This document shows, in pieces, positions 20,446 to 26,757 of a stretch of 42,125 nt of DNA; positions within the stretch are counted from its first letter, which is position 1; the number at the start of each line of letters is the position of its first letter. Source of the DNA: a virus (taxonomy: Duplodnaviria > Heunggongvirae > Uroviricota > Caudoviricetes); IMG/VR virus record IMGVR_UViG_2537561991_000019, positions 1 through 42,125 of that record. One strand, given 5' to 3'. Below the pieces are notes generated by a model, which searched no databases, was not told where the DNA came from, and saw only the letters and a list, made by a program, of their open reading frames with translations. The position numbers were made by a program, and so were the translations under genes.

Positions 20446-20829
20446 TCAGTAACGACCGCGCCTTCCGGTAATTTCATACCGGCAAATACCGGACAGCCCG
20501 GGGATCGTTATCTGCAGCTGGTTAGCCAGGGAGTTAATCTCAGCGACCAACACTGGCTTCGTATAGCGCCATGCCGCCAGCCCTTGTCCACAGAAGCTCG
20601 CCATATCTTTTTTCTGATCAAACTCATGACACTTCATATTGAGCTGCGCACTTAAGCTGTTGCGATGCTGAAGTTCTCCGGTGAAGTAGTCATCCAGGAC
20701 TTTATAGGCTGCATATTTAAATCCGGGGTTTAGCCATGCTGCATAATCATAAGCAACAAACTTCCCGCCATATGTTCCACCGTGTACACCGCGCTCAGTA
20801 AAAACCACAGATTCGTGTTTTTTCTCCAT
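20446..20829 (-). CDS. Hypothetical late-region protein
   Basis: 127-aa ORF immediately downstream of Rz; no family confidently recognised. Confidence 0.45.
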   Translation of the reverse strand: MEKKHESVVFTERGVHGGTYGGKFVAYDYAAWLNPGFKYAAYKVLDDYFTGELQHRNSLSAQLNMKCHEFDQKKDMASFCGQGLAAWRYTKPVLVAEINSLANQLQITIPGLSGICRYEITGRRGRY

Positions 20830-21773: not shown

Positions 21774-22109
21774 TTACTCCTTAGAGCCACCAAACTTGTT
21801 ACCGATTACTCGCATTGCAGCCCCACGAATAGCATCGACACCGATCAGCCCCACACCGCCACCAATGGCAACAGAAAGTGATTTAGGCCATCCGACATAC
21901 TCAAGAGCGGATGCAAAGGTCAGCGTCAGAGCGCCACAGAGCAAAATCTCGAGCGTTTTTCGCTTCCAGCCACCACCACCGCCAAAATAGGCGATGCGCA
22001 AACCAGCCATAACGATCGACATAATCACTGCACCCAGCGGCGTGTCTCCACGCCACCAGCTCTGAAACAACTCCAGCCAGTCCGGCCAGGTATTTGGGTT
22101 ATGAGGCAT
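21774..22109 (-). CDS. Holin (three predicted transmembrane segments; not lambda S-like)
   Basis: Start at MPHNPNTW preceded by GAGGTGAGAG; three hydrophobic stretches; immediately upstream of the endolysin. Confidence 0.75.
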   Translation of the reverse strand: MPHNPNTWPDWLELFQSWWRGDTPLGAVIMSIVMAGLRIAYFGGGGGWKRKTLEILLCGALTLTFASALEYVGWPKSLSVAIGGGVGLIGVDAIRGAAMRVIGNKFGGSKE

Positions 22110-22140: not shown

Positions 22141-22170
22141 GTGCTGTGTTGGAAATAAAAAGGCCACGCA
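22141..22170 (-). terminator. Intrinsic terminator (tR'-like) between the methyltransferase gene and the holin
   Basis: Minus strand GGCCACG-TTGC-GTGGCC followed by TTTTTATTT (plus-strand hairpin 22152-22168), about 30 nt upstream of the holin start. Confidence 0.55.
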
Positions 22171-22185
22171 ACGTGGCCACCAGAA

Positions 22186-23238
22186 TTATTTCCCCACCAG
22201 TTCACTTACCTCTTTCACCGTCTGATTAAACCGCTCTGACTCAAGTTCAACACCTAACGCCCGACGCCCCAGCGCCATTGCTGCTTTTATTGTGGAACCG
22301 GATCCCATAAAGAAATCAGCAACCAGATCACCAGGGCGACTACTGGCATTGATTATTTGCCGGAGCATATCCGCCGGTTTCTCGCACGGATGTTTACCCG
22401 GGTAGAACTGAACGGGTTTATGCGTCCAGACATCGGTATAAGGCACGGAGACTGATACGGAGAAATAGCGCCGGAGAGATTTAAACTCATCCAGCAATTC
22501 AGAATATTTGCGATTCAGTGAATCATAAGATGCCACCAGCTGGTGGTGTGGTTGTTCCAGTTGTTGTTCCTGAAACTTCTCTGCCGCTATACGGGAAAAC
22601 AGTGCCTGTAACTTCCGATAGTCAGCCTCATTCGGCAACTGCCACTGACTGGCACCAAACCAGTGGGAAACCATATTTTTCTTACCTGTGGCTTCGGCAA
22701 TTTGTTTTGCCGTTATACCCAGTTCGGCACGAGCATCCCTGAAATACGATATCAGCGGTGCCATTATGTGCTGTTTGAGTTCCCTTTCTTTTGCTGCATA
22801 GCCGTCACTTTTGCCGCGATATGGCCCCTGGTAATGTTCAGCAAACAGAACGCGCTCTGTGGCAGGAAAATATGCGCGCAGACTTTCTTTATTACACCCA
22901 TTCCAACGTCCGGACGGCTTCGCCCAGATGATATGGTTAAGCACGTTGAAACGTTCACGCATCATGATCTCAATATCAGATGCCAGGCGATGCCCACAGA
23001 ACAGATAAAGGCTTCCGGCAGGTTTTAACACCCGCCAGAACTGGGCCAGACAGTGGTCCAGCCACTTAAGGTAATCTTCGTCCCCTTTCCACTGATTGTC
23101 CCAACCGTTGGGTTTCACCTTGAAGTACGGCGGATCGGTAACAATCAGGTCAATGGAATCATCAGGCAGGGACTGAATAAAATGCAGGCAATCAGCGTTG
23201 ATTAAATCAACACTGTTTATTTTTACAGTATTTTTCAT
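22186..23238 (-). CDS. DNA methyltransferase, beta-class N6-adenine/N4-cytosine type
   Basis: DPPY motif (VTDPPYF) near the N-terminus and an AdoMet-binding FxGSGST motif (FFMGSGST) near the C-terminus. No Shine-Dalgarno before the only available ATG. Confidence 0.8.
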   Translation of the reverse strand: MKNTVKINSVDLINADCLHFIQSLPDDSIDLIVTDPPYFKVKPNGWDNQWKGDEDYLKWLDHCLAQFWRVLKPAGSLYLFCGHRLASDIEIMMRERFNVLNHIIWAKPSGRWNGCNKESLRAYFPATERVLFAEHYQGPYRGKSDGYAAKERELKQHIMAPLISYFRDARAELGITAKQIAEATGKKNMVSHWFGASQWQLPNEADYRKLQALFSRIAAEKFQEQQLEQPHHQLVASYDSLNRKYSELLDEFKSLRRYFSVSVSVPYTDVWTHKPVQFYPGKHPCEKPADMLRQIINASSRPGDLVADFFMGSGSTIKAAMALGRRALGVELESERFNQTVKEVSELVGK

Positions 23239-23388
23239 GGATCAGTAAGCGTAACTCTGGTAGGCTCACTCTGCTTTTGCGCTAAAGCAGTGGGCCGTGG
23301 TTCGCTTGTGACCAGTAAGCATGAGCGAATGGCTGGCAGGTGCTACCAACACCCACCAGCCGCCCATTTTCACAGCAGGAAACCGCCA

Positions 23389-23616
23389 TTACTGGCAGCG
23401 TCTGAATTTATTCCCGTACCCGCCGTTATCCTTCGCCAGCCCCGCCAGAACTAACTGAGTCAGTATTAACTGGCACCGGGCTTCGCTTACTCCGGTAGTT
23501 CTCGTCATCATGCGTGGCGTTACCCACTTGTCAGCAGGTAAGAAATGAAGGACTGCGGCGGCGGTTTCTGTCATATCTTGCTGTTTTAGCATGTCTTTTT
23601 CCCTTCTGGTTAACAT
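23389..23616 (-). CDS. Small hypothetical protein
   Basis: 75-aa ORF (or shorter from an internal Met with AGGG upstream) between the upstream terminator and the methyltransferase gene. Confidence 0.3.
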   Translation of the reverse strand: MLTRREKDMLKQQDMTETAAAVLHFLPADKWVTPRMMTRTTGVSEARCQLILTQLVLAGLAKDNGGYGNKFRRCQ

Positions 23617-23711
23617 GACATACCAATAACTCTTGTCTAAAAAGCCAGCAAGATAAAAAGTCAGTATTCACGACCACCAGCGTGTTTACTGTACTGCACC
23701 AAGTTTACAGG

Positions 23712-23742
23712 TACAAAAAACCCGCTCAGTGGCGGGTTTAAG
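23712..23742. terminator. Bidirectional intrinsic terminator downstream of the uncharacterised cargo gene
   Basis: AAACCCGC-CACTGA-GCGGGTTTTTTG on the minus strand; the same stem is flanked by an A-run and a shorter T-run on the plus strand. Confidence 0.55.
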
Positions 23743-23868
23743 TTGTGTGGCGAAGTAACCACTCTTAACACACTAATAGCATTTTTGTTATAACACAAGT
23801 AGCTCATTCAGTATTTTTAGAATCTTGACTTTCTTAAGCACGGCGAACTCTGAATACCAAACATAAAA

Positions 23869-24486
23869 TCAATTATCTTCCAGGCCGGATGCTATCAACG
23901 AAAGCCTCTCAAAAAACGCTGTAGCAGCCTTGTCCAAAGTTGAATAAGTACTGTATTCTCCGTGTTCGGGACCAACCACTACCCATGGTCGTCTTTTTGG
24001 GATTCGGGATTTCTCAGAAATCACTGTTCCAGATATACCAATATCAATTGTTACACCTGTTATTATTTTCTCTTCATCTCTTTCCCTGAACTCAATTGCC
24101 ATAAATGCCGTTTTTTTTCGTTTCCCGTTTTTAAAAAAATCAAATAAAGCAAAGCGATGCTCATTAAAATCAACACCCCATCGTCCTTCAGGATAAAGGG
24201 CATGAAAGTTGTCATTTACGCTCTGCATCGTCTCATAAGCTTTAACTTCTAAATCTCCATAATGCATAGATACCGCGCAGGAGTCACTGGGTAACTGTAT
24301 TTTCCCAAGATTGAAAACCTTTACTGCTCCAGAACTATGGCATCTTGCCCGCAACTTATCCCCATTTATACTAATCGGAGAAATATTCCTTAATGTTCCG
24401 GGCTGGCTCCCTCCTAAGTAAACGACTGTTAAAGATTGCTTATTTTCAATTGCATCAACTAATACATGCTCTACATTTTTATCCAT
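23869..24486 (-). CDS. Uncharacterised protein (~205 aa) in AT-rich cargo DNA between Q and the lysis genes
   Basis: Start at MDKNVEHVLVD preceded by GGGAGG; region visibly more AT-rich than the flanks; followed by its own terminator. No recognisable catalytic motif. Confidence 0.6.
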   Translation of the reverse strand: MDKNVEHVLVDAIENKQSLTVVYLGGSQPGTLRNISPISINGDKLRARCHSSGAVKVFNLGKIQLPSDSCAVSMHYGDLEVKAYETMQSVNDNFHALYPEGRWGVDFNEHRFALFDFFKNGKRKKTAFMAIEFRERDEEKIITGVTIDIGISGTVISEKSRIPKRRPWVVVGPEHGEYSTYSTLDKAATAFFERLSLIASGLEDN

Positions 24487-24561
24487 AATAACCTCCCAAT
24501 GAACAGGTATCATCAGGAGGTTATTATAAAATATGATTATTTACTTTGATTGAATTTATTA

Positions 24562-24948
24562 CTATATGTAACAATCAATTTCTAAAGATACCCCCAACAT
24601 TGCCAGACAACCGTCAATAAACCCTTCAGCTTTCTGCAGTCTGATAACAACCTGATTAAGTGATATCCCCAGTTTTACCCCCAACGCCCGTAATGTAACC
24701 CCATACACATAATACATTTCCAGTAATTCGTATTGATACGGTTCCTTTTTCTTAAGAACTGTCATCGCAGAGCTAATGATCAGGCCATCGTCATCGCTAC
24801 ATTGCGGGCGGGATTTTACTTTCGAAGGAATTAATCCCTTAAAACCTGCAGCAACAGATGACCATTCCACATCCTCGTGATTATTTGCCACCCATGCCCC
24901 CCAACGTTCAAGAACCATTTGAGTATCACGCATCAACTTTCTCCACAA
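24562..24948 (-). CDS. Late-gene antiterminator Q (QuuD-like short Q family)
   Basis: ~123-128 aa, ...MRDTQMVLERWGAWVANNHEDVEWSSVAAGFKGL..., resembling the remembered DLP12 QuuD; sits just upstream of the late region. Start could be the Met at 24933. Confidence 0.7.
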   Translation of the reverse strand: MWRKLMRDTQMVLERWGAWVANNHEDVEWSSVAAGFKGLIPSKVKSRPQCSDDDGLIISSAMTVLKKKEPYQYELLEMYYVYGVTLRALGVKLGISLNQVVIRLQKAEGFIDGCLAMLGVSLEIDCYI

Positions 24949-25947: not shown

Positions 25948-26757
25948 TCAATGAACGGTATCGAGCAGCTTTAACAGCTCAGGGAATCGGGATTCGAAGA
26001 AATGCGGCTGTGTCTCGCGCGGATTTGCGGGACTGGTGATGTTCTTGCCGAACATGCAACCTTTCGCTGTCAGCGACCAGAATTTTTTGATGTTGTTAAT
26101 CGCAGTGCGGCTGTATCGTTCGCGCTGCTCGACGATCCCCAGTTTCACCATCTGGTGATATGCCTGATTAGCCGTCAGGCGTATACCATACTGCTTCAGC
26201 AGTGCACTCAGTGACAGTGTCGGGCGACTTGAGCCATCAGGCGCGTCAGCAGGAGCATCAATGGCATAGCGCGGTGCCAGATTCGGTAAGCCAACAGCCT
26301 CCTGGAGTTTCTGACAGGCACCAAGCACTGAAGAGTTAGACAGGTTTAATTCCCGGCGCATAAAGTCCAGCAGAATCACACCAGCCTGCATCTTGTCAGC
26401 AGCCTGTCCGGATAATTTTTCCGGTGCGCTGGTTACCATGTCGAAAGTACGGATCACCTTCAGATGGAATGACGGGCTGATCCACATTGCATAGGCATAC
26501 ACCAGTTCCTTGCAGACATACGTTCCCCGTTCATTTCCCCCATGAATCACACTCACCGGGTCAACACCCAAATTCTGGGTGTTGGTCAATTCATGAACAA
26601 GCTCAACAGTTTGTTGGCTGGAAAGAAACTTTCCTGGCTCCTTGGTTCTGGCATTTGCACCAGATGCTACTGCTGCGCGATGCAGATCGTTCAGGCTGTA
26701 ACGCCCATAAGCATCACGACGAACTTCAATACCATCAATGACCATCAGATTATTCAT
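25948..26757 (-). CDS. Phage protein with possible KilA-N-type N-terminal DNA-binding domain
   Basis: 269 aa beginning MNNLMVIDGIEVRRDAYGRYSLNDLHRAA; assignment weak. Confidence 0.35.
   Translation of the reverse strand: MNNLMVIDGIEVRRDAYGRYSLNDLHRAAVASGANARTKEPGKFLSSQQTVELVHELTNTQNLGVDPVSVIHGGNERGTYVCKELVYAYAMWISPSFHLKVIRTFDMVTSAPEKLSGQAADKMQAGVILLDFMRRELNLSNSSVLGACQKLQEAVGLPNLAPRYAIDAPADAPDGSSRPTLSLSALLKQYGIRLTANQAYHQMVKLGIVEQRERYSRTAINNIKKFWSLTAKGCMFGKNITSPANPRETQPHFFESRFPELLKLLDTVH

Follow-up and report, generated by a model that had tools for sequence, protein, structure and literature searches.

The locus considered here raises the question of how a phage holds in check a DNA methyltransferase that is encoded among its late genes, directly upstream of the lysis genes, with a start codon preceded by no recognizable Shine-Dalgarno (SD) sequence. 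It lies in the IMG/VR record IMGVR_UViG_2537561991_000019, a stretch of 42,125 nucleotides (nt) of a tailed phage that was analyzed at its full length and is called the window hereafter. By homology the methylase belongs with M.EcoGII, a widely used reagent in chromatin and RNA mapping and the model 'promiscuous' methyltransferase. Its start codon stands at the end of a conserved, structured leader RNA, which probably sets the output of this toxic enzyme, by a mechanism that we infer below. The initial annotation had singled out the gene from the letters of the sequence; that observation is confirmed, while the enzyme's membership of a known family and the conserved leader had both escaped notice.

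The product matches the Pfam family N6_N4_Mtase (PF01555, 1.3e-42) over amino acids (aa) 29-341, with motif IV (TDPPYF, aa 34-39), the recognition domain and motif I (FFMGSGST, aa 309-316) following one another in the order typical of the beta class, the class to which the DPPY and FxGSGST motifs had led it to be assigned at the outset. The PADLOC model MTase_II matches it at 1.6e-152. Over the full length, identity amounts to 81% with M.EcoGII and 89% with the reconstructed ancestor Anc291, the true values being possibly slightly higher, as the reference sequences were machine-read from the PDF of Table S1 of PMC11551740. M.EcoGII and M.EcoGI originate from a prophage of E. coli O104:H4 C227-11. 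On DNA, M.EcoGII methylates adenines whatever the surrounding sequence, and it acts on RNA with lower efficiency; the lysogen does not express it, its constitutive expression is harmful, and an anti-restriction role has been presumed (Murray et al., 2018, PMC5778455). In a 2025 review, it is set beside Mu Mom under the description 'silent in lysogens and toxic' (PMC12707154). Non-specific activity was retained in all tested members and all reconstructed ancestors of the M.EcoGII clade, and Anc291 has been found experimentally to be a non-specific adenine methyltransferase (PMC11551740). Such strong homology suggests that the methylase of this phage acts on adenine regardless of sequence and that it is a new allele of an already known type of enzyme, with the corresponding enzymatic role. 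The early suggestion that it might protect progeny DNA is supported by what has been written of its close relative M.EcoGII (PMC5778455, PMC12707154). Hia5, Hin1523 and Nma1821, which are cited in PMC5778455 as prophage adenine methylases of relaxed or no specificity (Drozdz et al., 2012), come from different hosts and phage types and are likened to it here by description, not by sequence.

Pfam and PADLOC searches among the neighboring genes revealed no nuclease, defense or restriction partner, as had been anticipated, and the methylase is an orphan carried by a prophage in a lambdoid late-region context. It shares with M.EcoGII and Anc291 its length, architecture and class, as well as this prophage-borne orphan status, and an M.EcoGII-type allele of E. 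albertii (locus L011) has the same leader. It differs from them as an allele, and the leader, the SD-less start and the fencing by terminators are not described in PMC5778455 or PMC11551740. The same 1.6 kb is found at 97-99% identity in phages vB_EcoM-720R4, mEp460, cdtI, Ayreon and SfV, at ~90% in Stx2c phages and at ~78% in Citrobacter and Klebsiella phages. When one genome per species was scanned, 80 loci emerged, from Escherichia to Xenorhabdus, whose methylase homologues have 61-93% protein identity; with the SfV and Ayreon records added, the open reading frame (ORF) is intact and full-length in 78 of 82 loci, in many genera.

The methylase ATG (23236..23238), directly preceded by TTACGCTTACTGATCC, is the first start codon past a stop. 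Because an in-frame TGA occupies positions -6..-4, no longer form of the protein is possible; an upstream in-frame start was looked for and is excluded, in keeping with the claim that a single ATG is available. When the upstream region minus its last 3 nt was paired with the anti-SD core, the duplex energy was -2.4 kcal/mol, versus -3.6 to -11.4 kcal/mol at nine neighboring genes, which reach -5.3 to -11.8 kcal/mol with the full 16S tail. A canonical SD would be a purine-rich stretch that pairs with the CCUCC core at a distance of 5-10 nt from the start; none is present. The missing ribosome-binding site of the initial annotation is thus real, and it is also conserved, the energy being weaker than -4 kcal/mol in 70 of the 78 usable loci (from the genome scan with its 80 loci, the two phage records of SfV and Ayreon, and the window). 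To judge from this conservation, it is a matter of design and not an accident.

Most leader-bearing loci share the start context NNTGATCY-ATG-AAAAATACTGT, whose UGAUC box is nearly invariant in Enterobacteriaceae and Morganellaceae. The box (-6..-2) is complementary to positions 1530-1534 of 16S rRNA (GAUCA), with an energy of -4.9 kcal/mol and in the register expected for an AUG in the P site, and therefore what is absent is the canonical, purine-rich SD only. In partition-function folding, none of the other starts in the window, 28 in all, is as open as the segment AUG..+12, whose unpaired probability is 0.83, and SD-independent initiation at the methylase AUG is plausible according to these models. 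Ten Xenorhabdus loci (L053, L055, L057, L059, L060, L061, L067, L069, L079 and L080) depart from this arrangement: their usual ATG is followed by GAA TAG, a two-codon mini-ORF ~12 nt before the methylase start, and the methylase apparently begins four codons further on, with a GTG, a start that is likewise weak or coupled.

Upstream of this start, the leader together with the first 30 coding bases is the best-conserved part of the module in alignments of ~50 Enterobacterales loci. Among 23 loci, identity per position is 0.75-0.90 in this segment, compared with 0.52-0.86 per 30-nt window in the rest of the methylase coding sequence, 0.35-0.6 in most of the small upstream gene orf47, and 0.34 in terminator t3, downstream of the methylase. 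In Stx2c phages the leader is 100% identical to that of the window, and the surrounding 1.46 kb is ~90% identical. The covariance model R1 matches the window at 23224..23379 (179 bits) and nowhere else in it; at the other loci also it matches once, before this gene only, and always ends at ATG+15. Of 5426 complete E. coli genomes, 1065 (~20%) carry the leader, and it is present, nearly always unannotated, in 60 phage records, among which are Stx2a, Stx2c, Stx2d, cdtI and SfV phages; in some of the Stx2 phages the late transcript therefore carries it ahead of stx. At L011 (3600..4683), the methylase is directly followed by two tRNA genes and three STnc100 copies, an arrangement known from Stx-phage late regions.

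The leader resembles no catalogued RNA: Rfam 15 gave no match there at E<=1 in the window and eight diverse loci, and ARAGORN detected no tRNA or tmRNA, and Rfam no tRNA, in the gap before the methylase. A search of the literature found no description of it, which is weak evidence given that coverage was incomplete. The only Rfam matches nearby are sub-threshold, fstAT on the terminator and STnc130, a Salmonella small RNA, upstream (23611..23747 on the plus strand, 30 bits, E 0.098), on the strand opposite to the genes and spanning t1 and the region upstream of orf47. Two coding explanations for the conservation were rejected. The frame of a putative leader peptide, a 33-codon ORF starting from the conserved AAUGGGC, is broken by a 1-nt indel between loci, and the open frame on the other strand shifts from locus to locus. 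The versions of Photorhabdus and Xenorhabdus lack helix P3 (see below) and the UGAUC box. In Xenorhabdus L072, L075, L078 and others, a hairpin equivalent to P1 is followed by a U run, as in GCCGG-UGAAU-GCCGGC-UUUUCG, and the leader of those loci may hold a transcription attenuator.

The minimum free energy (MFE) of the leader in the window is -68.3 kcal/mol (z-score -3.9). A hand-built structure with three helices, P1, P2 and P3 (Table 1), accounts for 92% of cells as paired in the MAFFT alignment A2, against 26-44% when the partners are slid, and eight of its pairs show double changes, versus 3.1 in shuffles (0/500). In the model-fitted alignment A5 (49 loci), paired cells make up 92.5%, while slid controls reach 30-44%, and double changes occur at 10 pairs (0/500 shuffles). 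In P1, 97% of cells are paired and 6 of 12 pairs undergo compensatory double changes, for instance to GACUGUAAAAGUG/CACCUUUACAGUC in Proteus. The P2 pair of columns 57 and 81 is C-G in 24 cases, A-U in 9, U-A in 7 and U.G in 4, and two more pairs of this helix have double changes; its loop (GAUCAC or GGUCAC) resembles the 3' tail of 16S rRNA, GAUCAC. The inner stem of P3 is invariant, and in its outer stem 82% of cells pair and one pair has changed in a compensatory way. Covariation in these alignments thus backs helices P1 and P2, and since the G.U pairs occur on the sense strand only, the leader appears to work as RNA on the methylase strand. The long-range helix GGUCACAAGCG / CGCUUACUGAUCC of the MFE fold was rejected, its inner part clashing with the covariation that backs P2.

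Other pairings can be drawn for the same leader. The outer stem of P3 and a candidate helix P4 (AGUGAGC/GCUUACU) are mutually exclusive, and UGUGA at the 5' end may pair with UCACA of the P2 loop, GGUCA of the P2 loop with UGAUC (-6..-2), and AUGGG with CUCAU. Across 49 loci these alternatives are 88-100% paired, and one-sided changes keep the pairing.

The methylase and its leader are embedded in a unit bounded by terminators, the order on the minus strand being Q, a 205-aa ORF, t1, orf47, t2, a 150-nt gap, the methylase, t3 and the holin. The methylase had been placed between Q and the holin: the holin does come next, whereas two ORFs and two hairpins intervene after Q. In nine of 10 diverse loci of other genera the following gene is likewise a holin, of five Pfam families, which bears out a place in the late operon immediately ahead of the genes for lysis. 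The strong terminator that had been seen after the methylase stop is t3, which folds at -15.2 kcal/mol (z-score -3.6) and has the anatomy of an intrinsic terminator, a 7-bp stem with six GC pairs and then UUUUUAUUU. Under strict rules, a terminator with an unrelated stem follows the methylase stop in 34 of 78 loci. The hairpin t2 is a weak terminator in the window (-12.2 kcal/mol, z-score -1.2, no better than shuffles); it is found in 34 of 48 loci with covarying stems and has long U runs elsewhere. No convincing sigma-70 promoter was found inside the cassette, where the sole match between t1 and the ATG is a weak one (9/12) within orf47.

Homology with SfV and Ayreon begins at 23738, and homology with Ayreon, whose holin is different, runs through t3 to 22122; from these limits, t1 to t3 form one mobile cassette. 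In the SfV and Ayreon records, terminators are annotated at the positions of t1 and t3. The region resembles the pR'-6S RNA-tR' segment of lambda in having a Q-type antiterminator upstream, intrinsic terminators that should let only Q-modified polymerase through, and lysis genes downstream. The description of the terminator after the methylase as tR'-like is not sustained, however. In lambda, tR' is the first terminator after pR', just downstream of Q, whereas t3 lies ~2.4 kb from Q, as the third hairpin in line after t1 and t2, follows a 1-kb gene and moves as part of the methylase cassette. By its position t1 is better matched and is the best candidate for tR'. The gene orf47 stands beside the methylase in about two thirds of the loci, and 14 loci keep the leader without it, with unrelated genes upstream; orf47 is therefore not required for the role of the leader.

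Table 1. Positions of the methylase, its leader and the surrounding features in the window
Feature	Position	Strand	Description
Methylase ORF	22186..23238	minus	350 aa; M.EcoGII-family N6-adenine DNA methyltransferase, beta class
Start region UGAUC-C-AUG	23236..23244	minus	No purine-rich SD; TGA at -6..-4; GATC at -5..-2
Structured 5' leader RNA of methylase	23239..23379	minus	~140 nt; element continues ~30 nt into the coding sequence, to ~23209
Helix P1	23331..23361	minus	GGCUGGUGGGUG / CACCUGCCAGCC, 12 bp, 7-nt loop
Helix P2	23301..23329	minus	UUCGCU / AGCGAA, 6 bp; loop holds conserved GGUCACA (23307..23313)
Helix P3	23263..23296	minus	GGCCCAC...GCUUU-AGCGCA-AAAGC...GUGAGCC, near-palindrome
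Terminator t3	22153..22178	minus	Stem GGCCACG-TTG-CGTGGCC then TTTTTATTT; between methylase TAA and holin
Hairpin t2	23382..23399	minus	GCUGCCA-GUAA-UGGCGGU + UUUCCU; spans the orf47 stop codon
Terminator t1	23714..23739	minus	AAACCCGC-CACUGA-GCGGGUUU + UUUUUG; -13.8 kcal/mol; upstream cassette edge
orf47-like winged-helix protein	23389..23592	minus	67 aa from Met9; SD GAAGGG; homologue of SfV orf47
205-aa ORF	23869..24486	minus	Between Q and t1; strong SD GGGAGG; phrog_8498; sub-threshold WYL match
Late antiterminator Q	24562..24948	minus	PF06530, 5.6e-47
Lambda S-type holin	21774..22109 (ATG at 22109)	minus	PF05106, 2.6e-27; followed by R, Rz and Rz1

Taken together, we consider it fairly likely that the locus is an orphan M.EcoGII-type methylase in a mobile late cassette, transcribed in a Q-dependent manner and translated at a low level, independently of an SD, with an efficiency set by the leader. 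The cassette of this lambdoid prophage would comprise t1, an optional winged-helix ORF, t2, the leader, the methylase and t3, directly upstream of the lysis genes. Because it has no recognizable sigma-70 promoter and is fenced by terminators, it would be transcribed only when RNA polymerase modified by Q passes the terminators from the late promoter, and such enzymes should therefore be silent in lysogens. On the transcript, the AUG would be located at the 3' edge of the folded leader and be followed by an open A-rich stretch. The lack of a canonical SD, the conserved leader and the open start together suggest that initiation is SD-independent and governed by the leader, so that methylase output is likely to be low beside that of the structural genes, which share its abundant late transcript. 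By homology, the enzyme would modify adenines of any sequence context in replicating phage DNA shortly before lysis, and the progeny might thereby be shielded from many adenine-sensitive restriction systems in the next host. Its toxicity would be harmless because the cell is about to lyse.

Several points weigh against this account. Q-dependence, the level of translation and the role of the leader are all things that we infer, the non-specific activity is predicted from homology alone, and pR' of this phage is placed at a candidate position only. The open AUG and the pairing of UGAUC with 16S rRNA could permit reasonably efficient translation, in which case the description of the gene as tightly limited may be wrong. 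The pairings between leader and start (P2 loop with UGAUC, AUGGG with the AUG region, and P4) are compatible with the data and show no double changes; as their columns hardly vary, they are unproven. Having considered the leader as a fixed dampener, as a switch and as a stability element, we regard an SD-independent start with an efficiency set by the leader as the safest reading.

A doubtful but arguable proposal is that the leader is a responsive switch, in which mutually exclusive pairings (UGUGA/UCACA versus GGUCA/UGAUC, and the P3 outer stem versus P4) gate initiation. The effector might be the methylase itself, through autoregulation by RNA binding, the orf47 protein or a small ligand, and the P2 loop might mimic the 3' tail of 16S rRNA and compete for the UGAUC box. 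The high pairing frequencies of all the alternative helices and the one-sided changes that preserve them are what such a switch would predict, as is the complementarity of UGAUC to both the P2 loop and 16S rRNA. Loop and junction bases are invariant beyond the needs of simple hairpins, M.EcoGII binds and methylates RNA, and in orf47 an invariant recognition helix stands in an otherwise variable protein. On the other hand, there is not one double compensatory change in any of the switch helices, orf47 is missing from 14 loci that keep the leader, no likeness to riboswitches or other Rfam families is apparent, and the Photorhabdus and Xenorhabdus versions do without P3 and the UGAUC box. Tentatively, and with small odds in its favor, the leader could then represent a new class of cis-regulatory RNA for non-specific adenine methyltransferases of Enterobacterales phages, with a loop that mimics the 16S tail, gates an SD-independent start and perhaps responds to the methylase.

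Another minority possibility is that translation is not especially limited, UGAUC being an unconventional SD, and that the leader serves RNA stability or processing, as a 5' protection or an RNase III/E site. The energy of the UGAUC duplex is close to that of the SD of orf47 (-5.3 kcal/mol), the aligned spacing read from the sequence is ~6 nt, the box is nearly invariant in two families, the AUG region is the most accessible of the window, and the long stable helices of the leader would suit a stabilizing role. Nevertheless, the duplex is separated from the AUG by 1 nt only, a gap that is unusual for the geometry of the initiation complex; the Photorhabdus and Xenorhabdus relatives lack the box, some of the starts are GTG, and invariant loops are not normally needed by stability hairpins.

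We hold it improbable that the conserved sequence acts as DNA, that is, as an operator or promoter built on the palindrome GCTTTAGCGCTAAAGC and GATC sites and bound by the orf47 protein or a host factor, in the manner of the mom promoter of phage Mu, which is under the control of Dam and OxyR. The 16-bp palindrome is near-perfect, a GATC lies at -5..-2, and the adjoining gene encodes a protein of a DNA-binding type with an invariant recognition helix. Yet the compensatory changes in P1 and P2 preserve pairing and not sequence, the restriction of G.U pairs to the sense strand points to RNA, no sigma-70-like promoter was found there, the leader is often kept without orf47, and in Morganellaceae the center of the palindrome differs while the stem is retained. 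That the methylase is a decaying, non-functional remnant that has lost its ribosome-binding site, as the description of the M.EcoGII prophage as cryptic and of its gene as unexpressed might suggest, can be dismissed as very improbable in view of the full-length ORFs in nearly all loci of many genera at 61-93% identity, the presence of the cassette in sequenced phage records that include the named isolates mEp460, SfV and Ayreon and Stx2 phages, and an SD-less start that is conserved and not randomly degraded.

The preferred reading, an orphan methylase silent until Q acts and then translated at a level set by its leader, recalls mom/com of phage Mu, where a late gene for adenine modification is likewise toxic and stays silent in lysogens, in line with the parallel drawn between Mom and M.EcoGII (PMC12707154). 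The chemistry is different, however, and Com is a zinc-finger protein whereas orf47 is a predicted winged helix and dispensable, so that an obligatory zinc-finger activator ORF of the Mu type is not found upstream; nor is there any sequence or Rfam relationship between the two systems. Translation of Mu mom is under an extra layer of control, in which a small ORF upstream of it and an RNA structure at its start take part. As for an occlusion of that kind, -6..-2 and the AUG of the methylase can pair with the upstream leader, without covariation, and the AUG is predicted to be open.

Among the neighboring small ORFs, orf47 corresponds to phrog_331, and NCBI names its homologues TrmB-family regulators. 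Its AlphaFold model (predicted local distance difference test score 86.6) predicts with confidence the H-H-H-wing fold of a minimal winged helix, with Zalpha, PefI and TrmBL2 as the best structural matches; the recognition helix is RCQLILTQL. A Z-DNA-binding Zalpha domain was considered and rejected, the match being to the generic winged-helix fold only (E about 3e-3), and a role as an obligatory Com-like partner is ruled out by the 14 leader loci that lack orf47. The SfV orf47 is only 49% identical to the copy in the window, within flanking DNA that is 98% identical.

A perfect TATAAT at 24523..24528, just past the Q stop, is the candidate for pR'. If it is pR', the 205-aa ORF would be made in lysogens from this constitutive late promoter, which would make it a moron or defense candidate. 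Two further minus-strand ORFs, 25948..26757 and 20446..20829, share an N-terminal segment and give weak PADLOC PDC-S22 matches (1.7e-5 and 2.8e-4, respectively); the second is located just downstream of Rz, in the lysis region.

The enzyme family is already known, and location in the late operon is the norm for it. What is new is the leader, which is unannotated in the records examined, absent from Rfam and from the papers searched, and supported by covariation. The control that phages exert on M.EcoGII until lysis has so far been described only as 'silent in lysogens'; its anatomy can now be given: terminators that fence the cassette, a start conserved without an SD, and a structured leader that had gone unannotated. 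Should dosage be under its control, the leader would count as a new regulatory RNA of phages, and it might be put to use where toxic genes are to be expressed weakly and tightly. If it is moreover a switch, this would account for the dosing of a lethal enzyme whose late transcript is very strong, in Stx2 phages among others.

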